A DNA stretch of 63,964 nt, the filler included, from an uncultured bacterium (lineage in GTDB: Bacteria; DAOPZR01): assembly GCA_964637655.1 (NCBI GenBank). It is 6 parts of 6 records of this genome, joined end to end, with 100 filler letters (N's around TTAATTAATTAA, not from the genome) between each part and the next. Parts side by side here need not be neighbours in the genome. Positions count along the whole stretch, not along the records: positions 11,404 to 22,679 come from CAZWUZ010000114.1; 5 more parts are not named here. One strand, 5' to 3'. The notes below the pieces were generated by a model. That model was given only the letters and a program-made list of their open reading frames with translations. It ran no database searches and was not told where the DNA came from. Numbering within the stretch: position 1 is the stretch's first letter; every line of letters begins with the position of its first letter. Positions 9,267-56,551 of the stretch are shown one piece after another. Position numbers and translations under genes: made by a program.

Positions 9267-10364
9267 CTACATCTCGATCTCGATGACTTTTTTGATGGCA
9301 AACGCGCCCAGCGACTGCATGAATACCCCGATGCCGATCATGATCCGCCCGAGGAAACTGTCGACGAACAACGACATCATCTCCGTCTGCAGGATGGCGA
9401 AAACGATGCCCAGCGCGATGGGGAGCAGCGCGATGACGATGCCCCCCAGCCGCCCCTGCGCGGTCAGCGTCTTGATCTGCCCCTTGAGGCGGATGCGCTC
9501 GCGGATGGTGAAGGCGATGCTGTCGAGGATCTCCGACAGGTTGCCGCCGATCTGCCGCTGGATGAGCACCGCGGTGATGCACAGGTCGAGGTCGTCGCTC
9601 TCCACCCGCCGGATCAACCCCTCGAGCGCCTCCTCGAGGGTCAGCCCGAGCGCGTTCTCGCGCACCACGCGCGCGAATTCCTCGCCCAGCGGGTCGGGCG
9701 ACTCCTCCGCCAGCAGCTGCACCGCCTGCATGAACCCGTAGCCCGCCTTGAGCGAGTTCGACATCAGCGTCAGCCCGTCCACCAGCTGGTCGTTGAACAG
9801 TTTGACCCGCGAACTCTTCTTGAACAGGAGGAAGAAGTGCGGCAGGAAGAAGCTGATGATGAACCCGATTGGCATGACCAGGAAACTGCGGCTGATGATG
9901 AAAAACAGTCCGCCGCCGATGAGCGTGACGAAAATGTTGATGACGATGAACTCCTGCGGCTTGATGCGCAGCCCCGCCTGCAGCAGGCGCACCGCCAGCT
10001 TCTCGCGGTAGGCCTGCAGGAAATCGAGGCGGTTGATCTGTTCCCCCGCCGCCTTGATCAGCTTGAACGAGTCCTTGGCCCGCTCCTCGGCGTCACGCAC
10101 CTCCTTGATGAACTCGCGGTCGATGTAGGGGCGGAGTTTGTCGCCGACCGTGCTCGCGGTCGTGCTCTTGCCCCGCTTGATGCGCACCAGCAGGAAGACG
10201 ATGGCCCCGACGAGGATAAGCACCAGCGCGATACCGCCGAAGAGCAGCACCTTGAAGGTGACGGGGCCGCCGGCGGCCGGGGTGTCGGTGGCCGCGGCGG
10301 GAGCGGCGGCCATGGCCGCCGCGGGGAGCAGCAGGAGGCACAACAGCAGGAGGACGCGGTTCAT
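9267..10364 (-). CDS. tadB: Tad pilus inner-membrane protein TadB
   Basis: QLVDGLTLMSNSLKAGYGF, IQRQIGGNLSEILD, IRERIRLKGQIKTLTAQGR. Confidence 0.9.
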   Translation of the reverse strand: MNRVLLLLCLLLLPAAAMAAAPAAATDTPAAGGPVTFKVLLFGGIALVLILVGAIVFLLVRIKRGKSTTASTVGDKLRPYIDREFIKEVRDAEERAKDSFKLIKAAGEQINRLDFLQAYREKLAVRLLQAGLRIKPQEFIVINIFVTLIGGGLFFIISRSFLVMPIGFIISFFLPHFFLLFKKSSRVKLFNDQLVDGLTLMSNSLKAGYGFMQAVQLLAEESPDPLGEEFARVVRENALGLTLEEALEGLIRRVESDDLDLCITAVLIQRQIGGNLSEILDSIAFTIRERIRLKGQIKTLTAQGRLGGIVIALLPIALGIVFAILQTEMMSLFVDSFLGRIMIGIGVFMQSLGAFAIKKVIEIEM

Positions 10365-11303
10365 CAGCCGCGCTTGCGGATGAAGATGTCCGTCGAGATC
10401 TCGATGCCCTCTTCCTCGAATTTGGGCCAGAACTTCGGGCGGATGCCGGTCGGGACCATCTCCCCGACGATTTTGCCGGTCTTCGGGTCGAGCCCGTGCT
10501 GCTCGAAAACGAAAATGTCCTGCAGCACGACGACGTCACCCTCCATCCCCTGCACCTCGGTAACGTAGGTGACCTTGCGCGTGCCGTCCTGCAGGCGCGA
10601 CTGCTGCACGATAACGTGCACCGCCGAAGCAAGCTGCTCGCGGATGGCGCGCTGCGGCAGGTCCATCCCCGACATCATGCACATCGTCTCAATGCGCGAG
10701 CAGGCGTCGCGCGGGGTGTTGGCGTGCAGCGTGGTCAGCGAACCGTCATGACCGGTGTTCATCGCCTGCAGCATGTCCAGCGCCTCGCCGCCGCGGCACT
10801 CACCGACGATGACCCGGTCGGGACGCATGCGCAGGGTGTTCTTGATCAGGTCGCGCATCGTCACCGCGCCCTTCCCCTCGATGTTGGCCGCGCGGGTCTC
10901 CAGGCGGATCCAGTGCGGCTGCCGCAGCTGGATTTCCGCCGCGTCCTCCACCGTGCAGATGCGCTCGTCCTCCGGGATGAAGGAGGAGAGGACGTTGAGC
11001 AGCGTGGTTTTGCCCGAGCCGGTGCCCCCCGAGACGACGACGTTGAGGCGCCCCTTGACGCAGGCCCCGAGAAACTCCGCCATCTTCTCGGTCATTGAAC
11101 CGAAGCGCACGAGGTCGGAGACCTGCAGCGGGTTCTTGGAAAACTTGCGGATGGTGATGGTCGGGCCGTTCAGCGCCAGCGGCGGAATGATGGCATTGAC
11201 GCGCGAGCCGTCCTTGAGCCGCGCGTCAACGTAGGGCATCGATTCGTCGATGCGCCGGCCGAGCGGGCTGACGATCTTCTCGATGATGTGCAGGCAGTGC
11301 TCG
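10364..11303 (-). CDS. cpaF: Tad ATPase TadA/CpaF (5' truncated at contig end)
   Basis: [58 protein letters not shown]. Confidence 0.95.
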
Positions 11304-11403
11304 NNNNNNNNNNNNNNNNNNNNNNNNNNNNNNNNNNNNNNNNNNNNTTAATTAATTAANNNNNNNNNNNNNNNNNNNNNNNNNNNNNNNNNNNNNNNNN
11401 NNN
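11304..11403. other. Artificial contig linker
   Basis: 100 nt of N with central TTAATTAATTAA (stops in all six frames). Confidence 0.98.
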
Positions 11404-11404
11404 C

Positions 11405-12273
11405 AACGAGGGGCTGGGCAAGGTGCTGCGCATGGGGGCCTACGGCAAGGAGGTTATCACCCGCCTGCGCTGGATGGAAAAGGTGCTCGGGCCCGCGCTG
11501 CGCGAGGCGGTGCAACTCGCCGGCGGCATCAAGCTCAAGCCGCTGATGGCGCAGGCGCTGCAGATGGGTGACGAGTGCCATAACCGCAACGTGGCGGCAA
11601 CGTCGCTTTTCCTGCGCGAACTGACGCCGCACCTGCTGGGAACGAAGGCGAGCAAGCGCACCATCCACAAGGTGTTCGCGTTCATCACCGGCAACAACCA
11701 TTTCTTCCTCAACATCGCGAGGGCGGCGGGCAAGCAACGGTGGCGCCGGCGGCGGACATCCCCTATTGCACGCTGATGCAGTTCATGGCGCGCAACGGTT
11801 ATGAGATCGGCATGCAGCTGGTCGCGCTCCCCGGGCAGTGGTTCACCGCGCCGGCGGGGAACCCGAAGGGACTCTATTTCCCGGGGTTCACGGAAAAGGA
11901 CGCCAATCCCGACATCGGTGATTCGACCATCACCGAGGCGGCGGCGCTCGGGGCGTTCGCCATGGCGGCGGCGCCCGCCATCGTCAAGTTTGTCGGCGGC
12001 GTGCCGGCGGACGCGCTGCGCTACACGCGTGAGATGTACGAGATCACCCACACGCGCCACCGCGATTTTCAGATCCCGCAGCTCAACTTCGCGGGGACGC
12101 CGTGCGCGGTGGACATCGTCAAGGTGCTGCAGACGGGGATCACCCCGGTGATCAATACCGGCATCGCGGGGAGGAAGCCGGGCGTCGGTCAGGTCGGCGC
12201 GGGGCTGCTCTACGCGCCGCCGGCGATGTTCCGCGCCGCGCTCGAGGCGTTCGCGGCGAAATACGCGCAGTAA
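11405..12273 (+). CDS. DUF1116 family protein (YlbE/AllG- or YahG-like carbamoyltransferase subunit), 5' truncated, with an apparent frameshift near 11734
   Basis: NEGLGKVLRMGAYG, ALQMGDECHNRN, HFFLN in one frame; MARNG, DANPDIGDSTITE, PVINTGIA..PGVGQVGAG in the next frame. Confidence 0.85.
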
Positions 12274-12341
12274 ATCATGCGCGCGGTGCGCGCGGCAGAA
12301 CCCATCACGCCCCGCTACGGCGGGCAACGGAGGACGTGACA

Positions 12342-13193
12342 ATGAACGTGAAGATGTATGACCTGACGCAGCGCCTGAGTATCCATACCCCGCCCTGGCC
12401 GAGCTACATGCCGCTGCAGGTGCAGTATTTCAAGCGCATCGCCGGCGCGCACATGGGGCAGGGGGCGAACGGGCAGATCATCAAGACCAGCAACCACGTC
12501 GGCACGCACATCGACGGCGAGATTCACTTCTTCGCCTCGGGGCGGACCATCGGCGAAGTGCCGCTGGACGAATGGTGCGGCGACGGCGTGGTGGTCGACA
12601 TCAGCGACGCGGTCGAGGACTACTCGCTCTACACGCCGAAGATGCTGATGGAACGCGCCGAGATCCGCAAGGGTGACATCCTCATCATCAACACCGGCTA
12701 CCACCGCTACGGCTGGGACCAGCCGGAGTCGGACGAAGTGCGCTACATGGTCAAGCACCCCGGCCCGTCGCCTGATTTCCACCGCTGGGCGCTGGACATG
12801 AAACTGAAGTGGATCGGCGTCGACTGCGGCAGCGCCGACCACCCGATGAACACCATCCTGCGCAGCTGGCACCCGAAACTGTTTGTCGAGTGCGAGAACA
12901 AGTTGAAGCGCGACTACGGGGTGACGTGGGACGAGATGTTCCCGCAGGAGGAGTACTACCAGGTGATGCACCTGAAACTCTTCCCCAAAAAACTGGTGCA
13001 TGCGGAGAACATCGGCGGCGAGATCGACAAGCTGAAGAACAAGCGCACGTGGATCGGGCTGTTCCCGTGGCGCGCCATCGAACTGGAATCGTGCATCAGC
13101 CGCGTGGTCGCCTTCGAATTCGCGGGTGACGCGGCGAAGCCGAAGGCGGCAGCGAAACCGGCGGCCAGGAAGGCGGCGAAGCGGAAGCGGTAG
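12342..13193 (+). CDS. Cyclase-family metal-dependent amidohydrolase (kynurenine formamidase-like)
   Basis: YDLTQ, HVGTHIDG (HxGTHxD), GDILIINTG, GVDCGSADHP, HAEN; GGAGG RBS; Lys/Ala-rich tail. Confidence 0.88.
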   Translation: MNVKMYDLTQRLSIHTPPWPSYMPLQVQYFKRIAGAHMGQGANGQIIKTSNHVGTHIDGEIHFFASGRTIGEVPLDEWCGDGVVVDISDAVEDYSLYTPKMLMERAEIRKGDILIINTGYHRYGWDQPESDEVRYMVKHPGPSPDFHRWALDMKLKWIGVDCGSADHPMNTILRSWHPKLFVECENKLKRDYGVTWDEMFPQEEYYQVMHLKLFPKKLVHAENIGGEIDKLKNKRTWIGLFPWRAIELESCISRVVAFEFAGDAAKPKAAAKPAARKAAKRKR

Positions 13194-13218
13194 GCGTCAG
13201 CGGCACAGCGGATATCAG

Positions 13219-13252
13219 ACACCCGGCGGCGGTTGCCGCCGGGTGTTGTTCG
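13219..13252 (+). terminator. Intrinsic terminator between convergent genes
   Basis: Perfect 12-bp stem ACACCCGGCGGC-GGTT-GCCGCCGGGTGT followed by TGTT. Confidence 0.7.
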
Positions 13253-13278
13253 TTACCGCGCGCGTCGCGGCCGGCGGT

Positions 13279-14169
13279 TCAGCGTTTCCGGCTCGGGGCG
13301 TGGGGCGCCATGCGGCTCGTCGCCCGCCGCAGCAGGTGCGGCCGATAGCTGGCCAGGTTGCGGTCCCCGAGATGGTCGACCAGGAAGGGGACAGGGTACC
13401 CCGCCGTGCCGCGGCCGAGGCGGCCGGGGGCGAGCAGCGCGTAGACGATCTCCTCGCCGCTGCGCGCCAGCGCCAGTTTCTCCGCCGCCGGCGAGACGAT
13501 CATGCTGTGGCCGTAATAGAGCCCGCCCTTCGCATCCGTCCCCACGGCGTTGGCCGCGACCAGGTAGACGTTGTTCTCGTAGGCGCGCATGCGGTTGCTC
13601 ATCTCCCAGATCTCGAAATGCCGCAGCAGCGCCGACGGGCGGGCGATGAACTCCGCCCCCTGTACCGCCTCGGCGCGGAGCAGCTCGGGAAAGTCGCCGT
13701 CGTAGCAGATGATGAGGCCGATGACCCCGAGTTTCGTGCGGAAGACCGGGATGGCGGTGCCGGGCGTCGTCCACCCGCCGTGGCGCACATGCTCCGTCGG
13801 GAAGGGGTGGGTCTTGCGGTAGCGGCCGAGGACCTTCCCGCCGTCGCCGAGGAGCAGCGCGCTGTTGAGCACCACGCCCGCGCGCGGGCCGCGCTCATAG
13901 GTGGGGAGCACGCAGAAACTGCGCGTCGCCTTGCACAGGCGGCGCAGCGGCTGCAGGTAGGTGCCGAGGTCGCGCGGGATGAGCGGATAAAAATCCTTCG
14001 CGGGCATGGCCGGGTTGAAACCCGAGGTGACCGACTCGGGGAACACGACCAGTTTCGCCCCGCTCTCACGCACCGCCTTCTCATGCCAGGCGCAGACCTT
14101 CTCCAGGTTGGCGTCGAACGCGTTCGGGGTGACGCTGATCTGCACGCTGGCAGCGATGAAATCCTGCAT
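13279..14169 (-). CDS. Nitrilase-superfamily carbon-nitrogen hydrolase (amidase)
   Basis: Catalytic E-K-C triad in LVVFPES, YRKTHPF, ICYDGDFPE; RAYENNVY, GHSMIVSP. Confidence 0.9.
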   Translation of the reverse strand: MQDFIAASVQISVTPNAFDANLEKVCAWHEKAVRESGAKLVVFPESVTSGFNPAMPAKDFYPLIPRDLGTYLQPLRRLCKATRSFCVLPTYERGPRAGVVLNSALLLGDGGKVLGRYRKTHPFPTEHVRHGGWTTPGTAIPVFRTKLGVIGLIICYDGDFPELLRAEAVQGAEFIARPSALLRHFEIWEMSNRMRAYENNVYLVAANAVGTDAKGGLYYGHSMIVSPAAEKLALARSGEEIVYALLAPGRLGRGTAGYPVPFLVDHLGDRNLASYRPHLLRRATSRMAPHAPSRKR

Positions 14170-14346
14170 GACGCACGCTCCGTTTCGGGCGCCCACGCCC
14201 GTCCTCTGCACCGGCCGTGCGGCCGGCGTCATCGCCTGCACTTATACCATCGCGGCGGCTGCGGCGGCAAACTCCCGCGGTTCCGGCCGTTGCCGAAGCC
14301 GGCAAAAAAATGGTATGGTGGTGGCATCATCAGACAGGAGCCGGCC

Positions 14347-15987
14347 ATGGCACACACCACCCGTAAGGAAAACTACCAGGCGCGCCGCACGGCGGGGGCG
14401 CAGGCCGCCGCCGCCAGCGGCAGATTCGTCGCGCGCGACCAGGCGGCGGCCCTGCTTGCGGCGGTGATCCGCAGCGGCGACCGCGTCTGCCTCGAGGGGG
14501 ACAACCAGAAGCAGGCGGACTTCCTCGCCCGCACCCTGGCCGCGCTCGACCCGCAGCAGGTGCACGACCTGCACATGGTGCAGTCGTCGATCGTGCTCCC
14601 CGAGCACCTCGACGTGTTCCGCAAGGGGATTGCCCGCAAACTTGATTTCGCCTACTCCGGGCCGCAGAGCAAGGCGCTGGCCGCGCTGGCGGCGGACGGG
14701 ACGGTGCAGCTCGGCGCCATCCACACCTACCTCGAACTGTACGGGCGTTATTTCCTCGACCTGACCCCGCAGGTGGCGCTGCTGGTGGCGGATTCCTGCG
14801 ATGCGCAGGGCAACCTGTTCACCGGCAACAACACCGAGGACACGCCGACCATCGCTGAGGCGACGCACTTTTCCCACGGCATCGTCATCGTCCAGGTGCG
14901 CGAACAAGCCGACACCCTCCCCCGCGTCGACATCCCGGCCGACTGGGTCGATTTCATTGTCGTTACCGGCGAACCCGGCCACCTGCAGCCGCTCTTCACG
15001 CGCGACCCGGCGAAGATCACCGGGCAGCAGGTGCTGATGGCGATGCTGGCGCTCAAGGGGATCTACCGCGAGTACCGGGTGAAGTCGCTGAACCACGGCA
15101 TCGGCTACGCCACTGCCGCCATCGAACTGCTCTTTCCGACCTACGGCGCCGAACTCGGGCTCAAGGGCACGGGGTGCACGCACTGGATCCTCAATCCCCA
15201 CCCGACGATGATCCCGGCGATTGAGGCGGGGTTCGTGGAGCGCATCCACAGTTTCGGCGGCGAACCGGGGATGGAACGCTACGTGCGCGAGCGCGGCGAC
15301 ATCTTTTTCATCGGCAGCGACGGGTACATGCGCTCCAACCGCTGCGCCGCGCATTTCGCGGGACTCTATGCCATCGACCTGTTCATCGGCGCCACGCTGC
15401 AGCTCGACCGGCACGGCAACAGCTCGACCGCCATCCGCGGGATGATCGCGGGCTTCGGCGGCGGTCCGAACCTCGGCGGCACGGCCCCCGGCCAGCGCCA
15501 CATCAGCGAAGCGAACCGCCGCGCCGGGCGCACCGAGGACGGCATCTTCAAACCGCGCAAACTGGTGGTGCAGATGACCCCGACGGTGAGCGAAAAGAAG
15601 GCCATCCCGGTCTTCGTCGAGGAACTCGACGCGGTGGGACTGGCGAAGGACGGCGTCTTTGCCGCGCCGCCGGTGATGATCACCGGCGACCAGCTCACCC
15701 ATATCGTCACGGAACAGGGGATCGCCTATCTTGACCGCTGCCCGGACCTCACGGTACGGCGGCAGGCGATTGCGGCGGTGGCGGGCGACACCCCGGTCGG
15801 GCGCACCTCGACGGCGGCGGCGGTCGAGGAATTGCGCCGGCGGAAGATCGTGCAGACCCCGGTGGACCTCGGCATCGATCCGGCCACGGCCACGCCCGAC
15901 CGGCTGGCGGCGCGCAGCATCGACGACCTGGTGCGCATCTCCGGCGGTTTGTACGACCCGCCGGCGCAGTTTCGCAAGCGCGGCTGA
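14347..15987 (+). CDS. mdcA: Malonate decarboxylase alpha subunit (malonate:acetyl-ACP/CoA transferase)
   Basis: GDRVCLEGDNQKQADFL, LDFAYSGPQ, GAIHTYLELYGRYFLDLTP, LFTRDP, LNHGIGYATAAIEL, GFGGGPNLG, SGGLYDPPAQFR. Confidence 0.92.
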   Translation: MAHTTRKENYQARRTAGAQAAAASGRFVARDQAAALLAAVIRSGDRVCLEGDNQKQADFLARTLAALDPQQVHDLHMVQSSIVLPEHLDVFRKGIARKLDFAYSGPQSKALAALAADGTVQLGAIHTYLELYGRYFLDLTPQVALLVADSCDAQGNLFTGNNTEDTPTIAEATHFSHGIVIVQVREQADTLPRVDIPADWVDFIVVTGEPGHLQPLFTRDPAKITGQQVLMAMLALKGIYREYRVKSLNHGIGYATAAIELLFPTYGAELGLKGTGCTHWILNPHPTMIPAIEAGFVERIHSFGGEPGMERYVRERGDIFFIGSDGYMRSNRCAAHFAGLYAIDLFIGATLQLDRHGNSSTAIRGMIAGFGGGPNLGGTAPGQRHISEANRRAGRTEDGIFKPRKLVVQMTPTVSEKKAIPVFVEELDAVGLAKDGVFAAPPVMITGDQLTHIVTEQGIAYLDRCPDLTVRRQAIAAVAGDTPVGRTSTAAAVEELRRRKIVQTPVDLGIDPATATPDRLAARSIDDLVRISGGLYDPPAQFRKRG

Positions 15988-16057
15988 GCGGACCGGCGGT
16001 GGTGGCGCGGCCCCAAAAGAGGTATACTGCACCGACTGGCACAGTCAGGAGCGGCAC

Positions 16058-17665
<1,608 letters not shown>

Positions 17666-17668
17666 GCG

Positions 17669-18133
17669 ATGACCATGGACAACGCCACGCTGCTGACGGG
17701 CTTGAACATGACCATCATCGGGATGGGGATCGTCTTCGTCATGCTCGAACTGCTGGCGGAACTGATGCGGCTGATCGACAAGGTCTTTCCCGAGCGGGAA
17801 ACCGCGATGGGCGCGGCGAAAAAAATGGTTACGGAAGTCGGCCGGGCGGTCAAGCCGCTGACCGACGCGGCGAAACCGCTGACGGATGCCGCCAGCGCGG
17901 TGACCCGCCCGCTGACCGACGCGGCGACCGGGATGGCCAACGCGGCCTCGGAGATCGCGCGCCCGCTGACGCAGGCGGCGGCGGACATGGCCAAGCCGGT
18001 GGCGCGCAAGGACGTGCACGGCCCGATACCGTATGCGTACATTGCCGCAGCCATGCTGCACCACTACCGGCGCACCCTGCGGAAAACCGCGGTCAACCTG
18101 CATCACACGGCGAAGACGTGGTGGCGGCGGTGA
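17669..18133 (+). CDS. OadG/MmdD-like membrane anchor subunit of a Na+-pumping decarboxylase, with internal repeats
   Basis: N-terminal TM GLNMTIIGMGIVFVMLELL; C-terminal AYIAAAM...WWRR; lies between the carboxyltransferase and the biotin carrier. Confidence 0.75.
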   Translation: MTMDNATLLTGLNMTIIGMGIVFVMLELLAELMRLIDKVFPERETAMGAAKKMVTEVGRAVKPLTDAAKPLTDAASAVTRPLTDAATGMANAASEIARPLTQAAADMAKPVARKDVHGPIPYAYIAAAMLHHYRRTLRKTAVNLHHTAKTWWRR

Positions 18134-18143
18134 GGAGACGACG

Positions 18144-18602
18144 ATGCCGAAATACCTGATCAACATCAACGGTGAGGAACAGACGGTTGACCTGGTCGAA
18201 ATCAGCGACCGGACCTATCGCGTCACCATCGACGGGGTTGCCTACTCGGGACATGTCGAGGAAATATCACGCATGCTGCCCGACGAGGCGCCGGCGGAGA
18301 AGGTGGTGATCGCGCCGCTGCCGGTCCCCGTGCCGCTGCCGGCCGCGCCGGTGCCGGCACCGGCGGCGGCGGCAGCGGCGGGAAACCTGGAAATGCGCGC
18401 GCCGCTGGCCGGGACAATCATCGCCGTACGGACGCAGCCGGGCGCCGCGGTACGGACCGGCGACCTGCTGCTGCTGCTCGAAGCGATGAAAATGGAGACC
18501 GAGATCGTCGCGGTGAGCGACGGCACGGTCGGCGCGGTGGTGGTGCATCCGGGACAGACGGTGCAGGCGGGTGAACTGCTCCTGACGCTGGTGAAGCACT
18601 GA
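18144..18602 (+). CDS. Biotin carboxyl carrier protein (decarboxylase subunit)
   Basis: LEAMKME biotinylation motif, APLAGTI, Ala/Pro linker. Confidence 0.92.
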
Positions 18603-18604
18603 CC

Positions 18605-19738
18605 ATGGACTGGGCACTGCTCGCCGCCGACTTCCAGAAATTCTGGGGCATGATGGGCTTTCAGCAGTACACGCTGCAGCAGGGCATCATGCTTGCGGTT
18701 TCCTGCGTCCTGCTGTACCTGGCCATTGCCCACAAGTTCGAGCCGCTGCTGCTGCTGCCCATTGCCTTCGGTTCGCTGCTCACCAATTTTCCGCTGACCG
18801 GCATCACCGACAATGCGCCCGGCGGCCTGCTGTATTTCCTCTACCTCGGGGTGGAGCAGGACATCTGGCCCTGCCTGATTTTCCTCGGTCTGGGCGCCAT
18901 GACCGATTTCGGGCCGCTCATCGCCAACCCCAAAACCTTTCTGCTCGGTGCGGCGGCGCAATTCGGCGTTTTCGGCACGCTCTTCGGGGCGCTGGCGCTC
19001 GGCTTCACGGCGAAGCAGGCGGGCGCCATCGGCATCATCGGCGGCGCGGACGGGCCGACGGCCATCTACCTGACGTCGAAACTGGCGCCCGAGCTGCTCG
19101 GGCCCGTCGCAGTGGCGGCTTATTCCTACATGGCGCTGGTGCCGCTCATCCAGCCCCCCATCATGCGCCTGCTGACGACGCGCAAGGAGCGGCTGGTGCG
19201 CATGCCGCAGGTGAAAGCCGTGTCGCGCACGGCCAGAATCGTGTTTCCCATTCTCAGCACCATTGTCTGCGCGCTGATCGTGCCGCCGGCAACCCCGCTC
19301 ATCGGCATGCTGATGTTCGGCAACCTGATGCGCGAATCGGGGCTGGTCGACCGCCTGAGCAAGTCGGCGCAGAACGAGATCATCAACGTCTGCACCATCT
19401 TCGTCGGGCTGGCGGTGGGGGGGAGCATGAAGGCGGAGACCTTCCTGCAGTTCTCCACCATCAAGATCATCGTGCTCGGGCTGACGGCATTCGCCTTCGG
19501 CACGGCGGCGGGGGTCGTGCTCGGCAAGATCATGTACTGGGTGACGCGCGGCAAGGTCAACCCGCTGATCGGTGCGGCGGGGGTGTCGGCGGTGCCGATG
19601 GCGGCGCGCGTGGTGCAGAAGGTCGGGCAGGCGGAGGATCCGGGCAATTTCCTGCTGATGAACGCCATGGGTCCGAACGTTGCCGGCGTGATTGGCACGG
19701 CAATAGCAGCCGGCGTGCTGTTGTCGCTGCTGGGGTAG
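18605..19738 (+). CDS. Na+-translocating decarboxylase beta subunit (OadB/MmdB/MadB family)
   Basis: [72 protein letters not shown]. Confidence 0.95.
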
Positions 19739-19808
19739 GAAACAGCGGGGCGGCAGTCGCCCCCGTACGGCGGCGCTCGCGCGCCGCGAATGACAGGAGG
19801 TATCAGCA

Positions 19809-21065
19809 ATGCAACAGCGCAGGGTGGTGGTGACGGGCATGGGCTGCATCGCGCCGGGCGGCGCCAACGATGTGGCGGCGTTCTGGCGGCTGGCGACGAC
19901 CAGCACGGGCACGCTGGCCGGCCCGATCACGGCGTTCGACGCCAGCCAGTTTTCGACAACCTTCGCCTGCGAACTGCAGGGGTATGACCCGGAAGCGCAT
20001 TTTTCGCGCAAGGACCTGCGCAGCAAGGACAAGTTCGTGCAGTACGCGCAGGTGGTGGCGCGCCAGGCGGTGGCGCAGGCGGCGATCGACTGGGACAAAC
20101 TCGACCGCGACCGCTGCGGCGTCATTTTCGGGTCCGGCATCGGCGGCATCGGCACGCTGGAGGAGCAGCACAAGCGGTTCCTCGAGAAGGGGCCCGGGCG
20201 CATCTCCCCGTACCTGTGCGCGATGATGCTGAGCAACCTCGCCGCGGGCGAGATTGCCATCGATTTCGGCTGCCGCGGCATCAACAAGTCGCAGTGCACC
20301 GCGTGCGCCACGGGCAATCACGCCATCGGCGACGCCATGGACTGCATCCGCTGGGGGCGCGCCGACCTGATGATCGCGGGCGGCACCGAGGCGGCTATCA
20401 CCCCGATGGGGTTCGGCGGCTTCTGCTCGATCCGTGCCCTGTCGCAGCGCAACGCGGAACCGACCCGCGCCTCGCGTCCGTTCGACAGCGGCCACGACGG
20501 GTTTGTCATGGGCGAAGGGGCGGGCGCCGTGGTGCTGGAGGAACTGGAACATGCGCGGCGGCGCGGGGCGACCATTCTCGCCGAACTCGCCGGCTACGGC
20601 GCGACGGATGACGCCCACCATATCACCGCGCCGGTCGAGGGGGGGGCGGGCCTGGCGCGCGCGATGCAGGGGGCGCTCGCGGACGCCGGCATGCAGCCCG
20701 GCGACATCGATTACGTCAATGCGCACGGCACCTCGACGCCGGTGGGCGATCCGCTGGAGACGGCGGCGATCAAGACGGTGTTCGGCGCCCATGCGGCGCG
20801 GCTGGCGGTGAGCAGCACCAAGTCGACGTTCGGGCACCTGCTCGGGGCGACGGCGGCGGTGGAACTGGTCGCCTGCATCCAGTCCATCCGCACCGGGGTC
20901 ATCGCCCCGACGGTCAACCTGGATAACCCCGCCCGTGACCAGGGCTGCGACCTGGACTACACGCCGAACACGGCGGCGCAGCGGACGGTGCGGGCGGCGA
21001 TGAACAACTCCCTCGGCTTCGGCGGCCACAATGCGGCGCTGATTGTCCGGCAGTTCGAAAACTGA
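19809..21065 (+). CDS. fabF: Beta-ketoacyl-ACP synthase II
   Basis: RRVVVTGMG, TACATG, YVNAHGTST, STKSTFGHLLG, NSLGFGGHNA (C-H-H triad). Confidence 0.92.
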   Translation: MQQRRVVVTGMGCIAPGGANDVAAFWRLATTSTGTLAGPITAFDASQFSTTFACELQGYDPEAHFSRKDLRSKDKFVQYAQVVARQAVAQAAIDWDKLDRDRCGVIFGSGIGGIGTLEEQHKRFLEKGPGRISPYLCAMMLSNLAAGEIAIDFGCRGINKSQCTACATGNHAIGDAMDCIRWGRADLMIAGGTEAAITPMGFGGFCSIRALSQRNAEPTRASRPFDSGHDGFVMGEGAGAVVLEELEHARRRGATILAELAGYGATDDAHHITAPVEGGAGLARAMQGALADAGMQPGDIDYVNAHGTSTPVGDPLETAAIKTVFGAHAARLAVSSTKSTFGHLLGATAAVELVACIQSIRTGVIAPTVNLDNPARDQGCDLDYTPNTAAQRTVRAAMNNSLGFGGHNAALIVRQFEN

Positions 21066-21078
21066 GGCGGAGGACGGC

Positions 21079-22011
21079 ATGAGCAAAATCGCGTTTCTGT
21101 TTCCCGGGCAGGGGTCGCAGTATGTCGGCATGGGCCGCGACCTGTACGACAATTTTCCCGAGGCGCGGGAGACGTTCGACCGCGCGGCGGAACTCCTCAA
21201 GTACGACTTCAGGAAGGTCTGTTGCGACGGACCGGAGGAGGAACTGCGCAAGACCTACACGACCCAGCCGTGCATCTTCCTCGTGGCGCGGGCCTGCGCC
21301 CGGGTCATCACCCACCACGGCGGGGTGCGCGCGGTGGCGGCGGCCGGGCATTCGCTCGGTGAATACAATGCCCTGACGTTTGCCGGCGCGCTCTACTTCG
21401 ACGATGCGCTGGTGGTCGTGCGCAACCGCGCCCTGTACATGCATGAGGCGTCGCTGCGCGAACCGGGCGGCATGGCCGCGATCATCGGGGTCGAACGCGA
21501 ACAGGTGGAACCGGTCTGTGCCGGGATCGGGGGCGTGCAGGTGGCGGCGCTCAACAGTCCCGGGCAGGTGGTCATCTCGGGCAGGGCGGCGGCGGTCGAG
21601 CAGGCCATCAGCCAGCTCAAGGCGGCGGGGGTGCGCAAGGCCATGCCGCTGAAGGTCAGCGGTGCGTGGCACTCGCTGCTCATGCAGCCGGCGGAAGAAC
21701 GGCTCGCGTGCGAACTCACCAAAACCAGCATCACCAAGCCGCTGGTGCCGGTGGTGGCCAATGCGCTCGGACGGTTTGTCAGCGAGCCGGAGGACATCCG
21801 CCAGGCGCTGCTCAGCCAGCTGACCCGGCCGGTGCTCTGGGTCGACACCGTCAAGGCGCTGGTCGCTGAGGGGATCGACACCTGCATCGAACTCGGGCCG
21901 GGGCAGGTGGTGTCGGGTCTGGTCAGGCGCATCGCGCCGGAGATGCGCGTGTTCAATGTGCAGGATGTGCCGTCACTGGAAACGACGCTGGCGGGCCTCA
22001 GGGGCAACTGA
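21079..22011 (+). CDS. fabD: Malonyl-CoA:ACP transacylase (FabD/MdcH)
   Basis: FPGQGSQYVGMG, AGHSLGEY, VSGAWHS, ELGPGQV. Confidence 0.93.
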   Translation: MSKIAFLFPGQGSQYVGMGRDLYDNFPEARETFDRAAELLKYDFRKVCCDGPEEELRKTYTTQPCIFLVARACARVITHHGGVRAVAAAGHSLGEYNALTFAGALYFDDALVVVRNRALYMHEASLREPGGMAAIIGVEREQVEPVCAGIGGVQVAALNSPGQVVISGRAAAVEQAISQLKAAGVRKAMPLKVSGAWHSLLMQPAEERLACELTKTSITKPLVPVVANALGRFVSEPEDIRQALLSQLTRPVLWVDTVKALVAEGIDTCIELGPGQVVSGLVRRIAPEMRVFNVQDVPSLETTLAGLRGN

Positions 22012-22092: not shown

Positions 22093-22679
22093 TCAGCGGA
22101 CGATGCGGGAGGAACTGCGGACGAGCGGGCCGGCGAGCACGTGAATGAAGCCCGCCGCGCGGGCGCATGCCTCCCAGCGGGCAAACTCGTCGGGGTGGAC
22201 GTAGCGGATGACGGGGGTGCAGGTGCGGCGCGGCTGCAGGTACTGCCCGATGGTCAGTTGCGTCGCGCCGGCGGCGCGCGCGTCGGTGATGAGCGCGCGC
22301 ACCTCTTCATCCGTCTCCCCCAGCCCGAGCATGCAGCCGGTCTTGACCGGCACCCCGGCGGCGGCGAGCGCGCGCACTACCGCCAGCGAACGGCGGTAGT
22401 CGCTGCGCGGGCGCAGCGCCGGATAGAGGCGCGGGACCATCTCGAGGTTGTGGGCGGCGATGTCGGGGGGAGCGGCCAGCGCGGCGGCGAGCGCCGCCGC
22501 CTCACCGCTGAAGTCGGGATAGAGCGCTTCAATAATGAGTTCCGGCACCGCGGTCCGCACGGCGCGGATGACCGCGGCCCAGTGCGCGGCCCCGCCGTAG
22601 GGGAGGTCTTCGCGAGTGACCGAAGTCAGGACCGCCTCGCGCTGCCCGAGTTCGCGCAGCTATGTCGCGACGCGTTGCG
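22093..22679 (-). CDS. lipA: Lipoyl synthase (5' truncated)
   Basis: VLTSVTREDL, HNLEMVPRLY, KTGCMLGLGET, LTIGQYLQP, GPLVRSS. Confidence 0.88.
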
Positions 22680-22779
22680 NNNNNNNNNNNNNNNNNNNNN
22701 NNNNNNNNNNNNNNNNNNNNNNNTTAATTAATTAANNNNNNNNNNNNNNNNNNNNNNNNNNNNNNNNNNNNNNNNNNNN
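22680..22779. other. Artificial contig linker
   Basis: N run with TTAATTAATTAA. Confidence 0.98.
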
Positions 22780-34050: not shown

Positions 34051-34150
34051 NNNNNNNNNNNNNNNNNNNNNNNNNNNNNNNNNNNNNNNNNNNNTTAATT
34101 AATTAANNNNNNNNNNNNNNNNNNNNNNNNNNNNNNNNNNNNNNNNNNNN
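34051..34150. other. Artificial contig linker
   Basis: N run with TTAATTAATTAA. Confidence 0.98.
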
Positions 34151-45383: not shown

Positions 45384-45483
45384 NNNNNNNNNNNNNNNNN
45401 NNNNNNNNNNNNNNNNNNNNNNNNNNNTTAATTAATTAANNNNNNNNNNNNNNNNNNNNNNNNNNNNNNNNNNNNNNNNNNNN
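45384..45483. other. Artificial contig linker
   Basis: N run with TTAATTAATTAA. Confidence 0.98.
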
Positions 45484-54005: not shown

Positions 54006-54416
54006 AGTCCGCTGTTCCATGTTCACCCTCTCCCTTCGCAGAAGACGTCCCATAGCAGCAAGTCCGCTGTTCCATGTTCCCCCTCCCTGCAGGAGACGCT
54101 GGGCACAACAAGTCCGCTGTTCCCTGTTTCCCCTCCCTGCAGAAGACGCTGTGCACAACAAGTCCGCTGTTCCCTGTTTCCCCTCCCTGCAGAAGACGCT
54201 GGGCACANNNNNNNNNNNNNNNNNNNNNNNNNNNNNNNNNNNNNNNNNNNNNNNNNNNNNNNNNNNNNNNNNNNNNNNNNNNNNNNNNNNNNNNNNNNNN
54301 NNNNNNNCCCTCCCTGCAGAAGACGCTGGGCACAACAAGTCCGCTGTTCCCTGTTTCCCCTCCCTGCAGAAGACGCTGGGCACAACAAGTCCGCTGTTCC
54401 CTGTTTCCCCTCTCCC
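54006..54416. repeat. 50-bp tandem repeat array (copy number unresolved; N gap at 54208-54307)
   Basis: Unit AAGTCCGCTGTTCCCTGTTTCCCCTCCCTGCAGAAGACGCTGGGCACAAC; AGTCCGCTG at 54006, 54061, 54111, 54161, 54338, 54388. Confidence 0.93.
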
Positions 54417-56451: not shown

Positions 56452-56551
56452 NNNNNNNNNNNNNNNNNNNNNNNNNNNNNNNNNNNNNNNNNNNNTTAAT
56501 TAATTAANNNNNNNNNNNNNNNNNNNNNNNNNNNNNNNNNNNNNNNNNNNN
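56452..56551. other. Artificial contig linker
   Basis: N run with TTAATTAATTAA. Confidence 0.98.

Follow-up and report, generated by a model that had tools for sequence, protein, structure and literature searches.

What might an uncultured bacterium do with a cyclase-family metal hydrolase encoded beside an AllG (DUF1116) gene, an amidase and a Na+-translocating biotin decarboxylase? The question is raised by a gene cluster on one contig (positions 11404-22679, ~67% G+C) of a 63,964-base stretch of DNA from assembly GCA_964637655.1, referred to here as the window. An earlier note on this DNA had read the cluster as a candidate energy-conserving pathway in which barbiturate could be opened, ureidomalonate split by phosphorolysis, and the resulting malonate decarboxylated with Na+ export. 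Our results support that interpretation, all of the support being comparative-genomic. Judged by gene content, the contig carries the 3' tail of a widespread operon of anaerobes together with an adjoining module, probably for malonamate and malonate.

To place the cluster among its relatives, an alignment of the cyclase was scanned against one genome per species; at least 600 stretches matched, 586 of them encoding relatives. The best 80 of the at least 586 cyclase-relative stretches are called genome loci here, and 43 of them have at least 8 kb on both sides of the cyclase. Open reading frames (ORFs) of the loci were clustered and representatives annotated. The greedy ORF caller picked antisense ORFs in high-GC loci, so family counts were retaken by tblastn and with a filter on third-codon-position G+C (GC3).

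These loci share a canonical operon in the order AllH(DUF2877)-AllF(FdrA)-AllG-cyclase-CoxM(FAD)-CoxS(2Fe-2S)-CoxL(Mo). Among the 43 long genome loci, AllF was found in 40, AllG in 39, CoxS and CoxL in 37 each, CoxM in 36 and AllH in 35. Less frequent neighbors were a 248-amino-acid protein, u248 (15), a DUF35-type protein (13), an SCP-x-type thiolase (12), an amidase-signature (AS) family amidase and a CN-hydrolase (10 each), a family-III coenzyme A (CoA) transferase, CoAT3 (9), an NCS2 permease (4), a Na+-pump beta subunit (2), and MdcA and the Mmd carboxyltransferase (1 each). Over all 80 genome loci, AllG stood beside the cyclase in 63, and AllF and AllH were present in 61 and 50, respectively. 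The recurrent co-location anticipated by the earlier note is therefore borne out, with AllF, AllG, AllH and CoxL accompanying the cyclase in 35–40 of 43 loci. Every further gene it had suggested looking for (FdrA, DUF2877, carbamate kinase, a xanthine dehydrogenase-like molybdoenzyme and a nucleobase transporter) was found in related loci, and no allantoin-pathway family, whose presence it had named as counting against its reading, was among the annotated recurrent neighbor clusters. In the closest relative of the window (locus L001 of genome G001), AllF lies immediately upstream of AllG. In Elusimicrobiota, the upstream neighbors are the housekeeping genes uppS, cdsA, dxr, rseP, ispG and proS, and the operon boundary is therefore at the cyclase. 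Groups with the operon include Cloacimonadota, Elusimicrobiota, Riflebacteria, Caldisericales, Ignavibacteria, Bacteroidales, Kiritimatiellae, Verrucomicrobiota and Spirochaetota, among others.

The cyclase carries the metal-ligand motif HxGTHxDxxxH, in which H52, H56, D58 and H62 were invariant among 14 aligned sequences. It scored only 46 bits on the NCBIfam arylformamidase equivalog, which has a cut-off of 223, and is therefore not kynurenine formamidase itself; we propose that it is a ring-opening hydrolase for barbiturate. Forms of 255–308 amino acids (aa) in distant phyla (Elusimicrobiota, Cloacimonadota, Hydrogenedentota, Riflebacteria, Spirochaetota and Bacteroidota, plus one Thorarchaeota metagenome-assembled genome, MAG) are closely related to the window protein: the cyclase is 75–86% identical across phyla, an unusual degree of conservation, yet the adjoining AllG is only ~50–60% identical. 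With all relatives in the many phyla included, identity to the window cyclase is 75–90%. Longer forms of 440–493 aa score like tandem domain duplications, and the named ones come mainly from Chloroflexota/Anaerolineae MAGs.

The window's CN-hydrolase gene converges with the cyclase gene and diverges from mdcA, and it has an alternative GTG start at 14241. Its Glu-Lys-Cys triad (E45, K119, C155) was invariant in an alignment of CN-hydrolases. Although the protein reached no NCBIfam equivalog cut-off, its nearest PDB structures are the omega-amidases Nit3 and Nit2, enzymes which act on monoamides of dicarboxylates, and we propose that it is a malonamate amidase. A scan of 13100-14450 for promoters and terminators detected no promoter-like site and one terminator-like hairpin, versus 0.5 expected.

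CN-hydrolases of this type also occur inside the operon. In L009, a window-type CN-hydrolase (49% identity) ends the operon CoxM-CoxS-CoxL-AllH-AllF-AllG-cyclase-CN-hydrolase. Using an alignment of four CN-hydrolases as query, we found 80 metagenome loci, many of them short. A second-clade cyclase (42–59% identity) was present in 48 of these; among the 61 loci with at least 1 kb of upstream sequence, it was the immediate upstream neighbor, in the same orientation, in 24. The 80 loci also contained CoAT3 (42), AllG (23), AllF (20), CoxM/S/L (15–19), NCS2 permease (11) and MdcA (4). When only the 17 metagenome loci with at least 5 kb on both sides were counted, cyclase and CoAT3 were each found in 12, AllF and AllG in 10, CoxMSL in 9, NCS2 permease in 6 and MdcA in 2. 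Five of these 17 lacked a cyclase; among them, two had MdcA directly after the CN-hydrolase and one contained CoAT3. The commoner order in metagenomes is AllH-AllF-AllG-CoAT3-cyclase-CN-hydrolase. Two further gene sets followed the operon in some metagenome loci (L107, L109, L111, L116, L124 and others, downstream of the CN-hydrolase): a polar-amino-acid-type ATP-binding cassette transporter (SBP_bac_3, permeases and ATPase) in 7–14 loci, and a 2-oxoacid:ferredoxin oxidoreductase with an ADP-forming acyl-CoA synthetase in 4–7.

We turn to the MdcA-like protein and the decarboxylase. On TIGR01110, the window's MdcA scored 767 bits, just under the cut-off of 789, and all MdcA-like proteins considered here scored 744–767 bits. 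The intergenic gaps of the contig leave no room for an acyl carrier protein (ACP) gene (MdcC/MadE) or for holo-ACP/prosthetic-group genes (MdcB/MdcG), and the decarboxylase is therefore of the methylmalonyl-CoA-decarboxylase type, behind an ACP-less MdcA. Matches to the MdcC and MdcB families were likewise absent from the genomes of MdcA-bearing relatives (0 of 3 for each family). Their absence fits an ACP-independent CoA-transferase role for the MdcA-like protein, which we propose to be an acetyl-CoA:malonate CoA-transferase. The translation of the biotin carboxyl carrier protein (BCCP) contains the biotinylation motif EAMKME, and the carboxyltransferase, at 763 bits on the mmdA subfamily model, is under the cut-off of 999. 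Together, the ACP-less MdcA and the MmdA, OadG, BCCP and beta subunits may constitute the genetic basis of a CoA-dependent type of malonate decarboxylation that pumps Na+; the same arrangement is seen at 14347-19738 of the window and at L090:1-4764. The malonate Na+ pump of the earlier note holds in that a biotin-type Na+-pump set is complete, but the set is Mmd-type with an ACP-less MdcA and not the Mad system of Malonomonas. Assignment to the Mad type was rejected on three grounds: ACP genes are missing, the carboxyltransferase is of the fused MmdA type, and the beta subunit falls far short on the MadB-specific model (172 against 597 bits).

MdcA is rare, being found in 1 of 40 relatives of G001 and in 3 of 32 genomes with the operon (0 of 14 control genomes), yet all four MdcA copies of those three operon genomes adjoin the operon or a CN-hydrolase; the grouping is therefore more than chance. 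Overall, MdcA lies beside the operon or a CN-hydrolase in at least four lineages. On the minus strand of L145, in the order (305-aa ORF)-AllF-AllG-MdcA, it holds the usual position of CoAT3. It immediately follows the CN-hydrolase in L097 and L099, whereas the two genes are divergent in the window, in L093 and in both of the G001 pairs. At the end of an AllH-AllF-AllG-cyclase-amidase-u248-thiolase operon in two Spirochaetota genomes, MdcA is convergent, the other flanks being unrelated. The operon thus displays two non-orthologous replacements, AS amidase for CN-hydrolase and family-III CoA-transferase for MdcA, or the reverse.

Other operon members provide clues to the chemistry. The PDB relatives of an in-operon 318-aa AA-kinase (1e19, E 6.5e-103; 1b7b, E 2.8e-88) identify it as a carbamate kinase. 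It was found inside the operon in five metagenome loci, which represent three distinct arrangements; one is the complete operon of L119, NCS2-PucR-AllH-AllF-AllG-cyclase-CN-hydrolase-carbamate kinase-CoAT3-CoxM-CoxS-CoxL. Carbamate kinase scored over cut-off in 24 of 32 operon genomes versus 2 of 14 control genomes. In G001, it is clustered with an ornithine-carbamoyltransferase-family enzyme and a pyridoxal-phosphate enzyme (contig C4, L092:8665-12057), and it may therefore serve several pathways which yield carbamoyl phosphate. The operon permease matched UraA with E 3.6e-75 versus E 7.6e-13 for the urate-xanthine permease UapA, and all six permeases examined scored higher on the NCBIfam model for uracil permease than for RutG, and higher for RutG than for xanthine permease. 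In L145, a uridine-phosphorylase-like gene lies between the cyclase and the CN-hydrolase (TIGR01718 266 bits, cut-off 280; DeoD 134), and a Bmp/PnrA-type binding protein is encoded beside the operon. No oxalyl-CoA decarboxylase scored over cut-off in the 32 operon genomes, and most genomes with the CoAT3-type operon had no match at all; a Na+-pump beta subunit was found in 13 of 16 such genomes. The barbiturase family (AtzD/TrzD fold, PF09663) matched none of the 32 operon genomes, and it matched no control genome either. The flavin subunit CoxM is ~296 aa long with as few as 2 Cys and lacks a conserved Cys-rich insert, and a hydroxylase role is therefore the simplest reading of the molybdoenzyme; HcrB, the corresponding subunit of 4-hydroxybenzoyl-CoA reductase, has an extra iron-sulfur (Fe-S) insert. 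A PucR-family regulator lies immediately upstream of AllH in four metagenome loci (e.g., L119:3175-4836 and L163:424-2133).

From these genes we infer a pathway in which uracil, and probably thymine too, would be the fermented substrate. Uracil would be taken up by the UraA-like permease or, in one locus, derived from uridine via the uridine-phosphorylase-like enzyme. The CoxMSL-type molybdenum hydroxylase would oxidize it to barbiturate, and the cyclase-family metal hydrolase would open the barbiturate ring to give ureidomalonate. The AllF/AllG/AllH complex would then phosphorolyze this N-acylurea to carbamoyl phosphate and malonamate, and carbamate kinase would convert the carbamoyl phosphate to ATP. 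Malonamate would be deamidated to malonate by the CN-hydrolase (by the AS amidase in other lineages), and malonyl-CoA would be made by the ACP-less MdcA, whose place is taken in other lineages by a YfdE-like family-III CoA-transferase. Finally, in the lineage of the window, the Mmd-type biotin decarboxylase would convert malonyl-CoA to acetyl-CoA with Na+ export. This scheme fits the parts better than any alternative we constructed. That operon and module together ferment uracil via barbiturate to acetyl-CoA, with Na+ export in this lineage, we judge to be evenly balanced between right and wrong. The broader proposal, that uncultured anaerobes of about ten groups share an oxidative pyrimidine fermentation with AllFGH acting on ureidomalonate and a Na+ pump in some lineages, is more tentative and falls a little short of an even chance.

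Several observations weigh against this scheme. The identity of the substrate is read from gene context. The window holds only the tail of the operon: owing to the cut at 11404, a search of all its contigs detected neither AllF nor AllH, and no CoxMSL, permease or carbamate kinase gene. The adjacency of cyclase and amidase-MdcA module is specific to the window's genome, the two being on separate contigs in G001. Few loci place MdcA near the cyclase (2 of 80 genome loci, 4 of 80 metagenome loci), and the decarboxylase is likewise seldom close to the operon (in the window, in L016 and L037, and perhaps in L142 and L149). All permeases scored under the uracil-permease equivalog cut-off. CoAT3 is closest to the oxalate enzyme YfdE (PDB 4hl6, E 1.3e-103; NCBIfam 402 bits). 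CoxL scored 540 bits on XdhA and 515 bits on 4-hydroxybenzoyl-CoA reductase in NCBIfam, both under their cut-offs, as were all its other NCBIfam scores, and its nearest solved structure is the alpha subunit of the latter enzyme (E 2e-100). The scheme also leaves unexplained a trio of u248, an SCP-x-type thiolase-like protein and a DUF35 protein (zf-ChsH2/OB), present in 20–23 of 80 loci (L044:3866-6172, L005:10993-13290, L034:3317-5199 and others). The Na+-pump beta subunit was absent from all 7 searched genomes with a u248 and thiolase operon, versus 13 of 16 for the CoAT3 type, and the trio may be an alternative route of malonyl-CoA disposal; u248 is GNAT-like by ESM-Atlas features, which we take as a lead only. 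The sole AllFGH assayed acts on oxalurate (PMC11326118). AllFGH homologues are also described in very different settings, such as beside biuret hydrolase in nitrifiers (PMC12625717), and their substrates may therefore vary.

Some of these observations would be accommodated if the ring were a different N-heterocycle, of the purine or hydantoin/parabanate type, opened to oxalurate; AllFGH would then act canonically, the amidase on oxamate and the CoA-transferase on oxalate. The substrate of the only characterized AllFGH (PMC11326118), the similarity of CoAT3 to YfdE, an acetyl-CoA:oxalate CoA-transferase, the PucR-family (purine catabolism) regulator in four loci and the best NCBIfam match of CoxL, XdhA, are all consistent with oxalurate. 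However, oxalyl-CoA decarboxylase is missing over cut-off from the operon genomes, MdcA, a malonate enzyme, substitutes for CoAT3, the permeases resemble UraA and not xanthine or urate carriers, L145 encodes a uridine-phosphorylase-like protein, and allantoin-pathway families are absent among the annotated recurrent neighbors. In addition, the window decarboxylase is of the biotin carboxyltransferase type, which by established enzymology cannot act on oxalyl-CoA. We therefore consider the oxalurate alternative unlikely.

The possibility must also be weighed that CN-hydrolase, MdcA and decarboxylase form a self-standing module for imported malonate or malonamate, unrelated to AllG and the cyclase. 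The closest relative bears on this directly. Compared with the window, L001 is 90% identical in the cyclase and 85% in AllG (82% over AllG and cyclase DNA), and synteny resumes at lipA, but the 8.9-kb block from CN-hydrolase to FabD is missing between cyclase and lipA, which are just 1.5 kb apart there. In its place, L001:6733-8200 contains an ORF with a GIY-YIG domain and a 165-aa ORF without a Pfam match; this segment may be a trace of rearrangement. On another contig, G001 has the block of CN-hydrolase divergent from MdcA, carboxyltransferase, small subunit, BCCP and beta subunit (86/87/84% identity) and a second divergent CN-hydrolase and MdcA pair (71/84% identity). The pairing thus occurs twice in G001, which marks amidase and MdcA as a conserved unit. 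Together with the CN-hydrolase-MdcA pairs found by themselves amid housekeeping genes in L097 and L099, and with a Na+ pump seldom near the operon, this would suit a coincidental neighborhood. In contrast, 12 of the 17 long metagenome loci, and L009 as well, have a CN-hydrolase homologue within the AllFGH-cyclase operon, and MdcA, which is otherwise rare (1 of 40 relatives, 0 of 14 controls), is inside the operon in L145 and beside it in L026 and L034. Coincidence is, in our judgment, distinctly unlikely.

A third arrangement would follow an order like that of the Rut pathway: the cyclase would open uracil to ureidoacrylate, AllFGH would yield carbamoyl phosphate and aminoacrylate, which would become malonic semialdehyde, and the molybdoenzyme would oxidize this to malonate. 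The xanthine-oxidase family does include aldehyde oxidoreductases, some among the CoxL matches, and a malonate end product and a uracil transporter fit equally well. However, the recurrent amidase (AS or CN-hydrolase type, in 20 of 43 genome loci) would have no substrate, ureidoacrylate, unlike oxalurate, is no N-acylurea, and we know of no precedent for hydrolytic opening of the aromatic uracil ring. We regard this order as improbable. It is highly improbable that FdrA, DUF1116 and DUF2877 form an ADP-forming acyl-CoA synthetase beside a 4-hydroxybenzoyl-CoA-reductase-like molybdoenzyme acting on a (hetero)aromatic CoA ester, without ureide chemistry: NCBIfam does call AllF 'acyl-CoA synthetase FdrA' (531 bits, over cut-off), the top PDB match of CoxL is 4-hydroxybenzoyl-CoA reductase alpha (E 2e-100), and CoA-transferases and a thiolase-like gene are present, but the operon also includes carbamate kinase, nucleobase permeases and amidases, its ~296-aa flavin subunit with as few as 2 Cys has no HcrB-type extra Fe-S insert, and E. 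coli genetics ascribes the trio to transcarbamoylation (PMC11326118).

Returning to the ureidomalonate scheme, its enzyme families and intermediates are known, and what would be new is their combination, the substrate of AllFGH and the role of the cyclase fold. Similar to E. coli AllFGH/AllK, the loci combine FdrA/AllF, DUF1116/AllG and DUF2877/AllH with a carbamate kinase in the operon or genome, and the proposed logic, phosphorolysis of an N-acylurea for ATP, is the same. In contrast to E. coli, the genes run H-F-G, and they are accompanied by genes for a molybdenum hydroxylase, cyclase, amidase and CoA-transferase in place of allB/C/D. The substrate we propose, ureidomalonate, has one carbon more than oxalurate, which E. 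coli AllFGH converts to carbamoyl phosphate and oxamate (PMC11326118).

Aerobic uracil/thymine dehydrogenase is a three-subunit molybdo-flavo-iron-sulfur hydroxylase, and an enzyme of this composition would also catalyze the first step of our scheme. The aerobic pyrimidine pathway of Rhodococcus and its relatives (uracil/thymine dehydrogenase, barbiturase and ureidomalonase) runs from uracil through barbiturate and ureidomalonate to malonate (PMC3758960), and shares all four intermediates with our scheme. In contrast to that pathway, ring opening here would be performed by a cyclase-family metal hydrolase and not an AtzD/barbiturase fold, and phosphorolysis would give carbamoyl phosphate and malonamate where hydrolysis there gives urea and malonate. 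The scheme also has an extra amidase step, and its hosts are uncultured anaerobes.

Like Malonomonas rubra Mad, which exports Na+ as malonate is decarboxylated (PMC8085960), the decarboxylase set pairs a transferase of the MdcA/MadA type with a biotin carrier and a membrane beta subunit and would pump Na+, but the window set is without ACP or prosthetic-group genes and its carboxyltransferase is of the fused MmdA type. Its order of carboxyltransferase, small subunit, BCCP and beta subunit is that of MmdABCD from Veillonella and Propionigenium, whereas here MdcA and the divergent amidase precede, and we propose that the enzyme acts on malonyl-CoA, and on methylmalonyl-CoA where thymine is the starting compound. 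Dehning and Schink reportedly described, in a biochemical report of 1994, CoA-dependent malonate decarboxylation in Sporomusa malonica. That system is reported to combine a malonate CoA-transferase with a membrane-bound biotin malonyl-CoA decarboxylase, as the ACP-less MdcA and Mmd genes would predict; we found no gene assignment for it, and the link is tentative.

In the open-access and bioRxiv literature, we found no description of the operon or of phosphorolytic ureidomalonate cleavage. A 2021 review names three sources of carbamoyl phosphate and no others: citrulline, oxalurate and carbamoyl-phosphate synthase (PMC8085960). If the scheme is correct, it would represent a new ATP-yielding fermentation, from a nucleobase and with two energy-conserving steps in some lineages. 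AllFGH, an enzyme identified only recently, would gain a second class of substrate, the cyclase fold would gain a new catalytic role, and anaerobes that decarboxylate malonate would have a physiological source of it. A function would also be assigned to an operon that is conserved across many lineages, as yet uncultured, from digesters, sediments and wastewater. Decaying biomass is rich in nucleobases; to our knowledge, the known routes of anaerobic pyrimidine breakdown are reductive, and we know of no ATP yield from them.

The features of the window are collected in Table 1. It consists of at least seven joined contigs, and gene neighborhoods are not readable across the joins. All genes listed by the earlier note were recovered by Pfam and NCBIfam where it had placed them, except that its DUF1116 gene proved to be the 3' part only.

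Table 1. Coordinates of features in the window; genes were called from Pfam, NCBIfam and translations.
Feature	Position	Strand	Support
AllG/DUF1116, 3' part	11405-12273	+	PF06545 E 5.2e-44 (11405-11773), E 5.2e-20 (11734-12270)
Cyclase-family metal hydrolase, 283 aa	12342-13193	+	PF04199 E 3.6e-34
CN-hydrolase (nitrilase-superfamily) amidase, 296 aa	13279-14169	-	PF00795 E 1.9e-46
MdcA-like malonate CoA/ACP-transferase, 546 aa	14347-15987	+	PF16957 E 1.6e-237
MmdA-like carboxyltransferase of biotin-dependent decarboxylase	16058-17665	+	PF01039 E 1.2e-190; mmdA subfamily 763 bits
OadG-like small membrane subunit (weak assignment)	17669-18133	+	PF04277 E 1.6e-5; TIGR01195 30.6 bits, under cut-off
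BCCP	18144-18602	+	PF00364 E 3.4e-16; MmdC-like 79 bits
Na+-translocating decarboxylase beta subunit	18605-19738	+	PF03977 E 9.4e-159; TIGR01109 509 bits, cut-off 190.6
FabF (beta-ketoacyl-ACP synthase II)	19809-21065	+	TIGR03150 564 bits, cut-off 494
FabD (malonyl-CoA:ACP transacylase)	21079-22011	+	TIGR00128 318 bits, cut-off 261
LipA fragment	22093-22659	-	
Spacers (five), each N44-TTAATTAATTAA-N44	11304-11403, 22680-22779, 34051-34150, 45384-45483, 56452-56551		
Run of 100 N (one)	54208-54307		

FabF and FabD, which may or may not be part of the pathway, adjoin the decarboxylase genes; on the MdcH model, FabD scored 231 bits, under the cut-off of 298. AllG is truncated by the contig start, and a 1-nt deletion at ~11733 changes its frame. 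The deletion is one missing G in GGCAAGGC relative to the intact AllG of L001; a full-length relative, in L013, matches PF06545 with E 4.7e-100. Of four public wastewater-metagenome runs, two cover the site; their contigs, X3 and X4, both have the extra G, and they also have T at 11721, restoring Met. Because the covering contigs have the G, the frameshift probably reflects misassembly or a minor variant, with the gene intact in the population. Two run contigs extend 169 and 111 nt upstream of 11404. The preceding contig of the window is closed by a T2SSE-type secretion ATPase fragment (10364-11239, minus strand), which is unrelated to the cluster.

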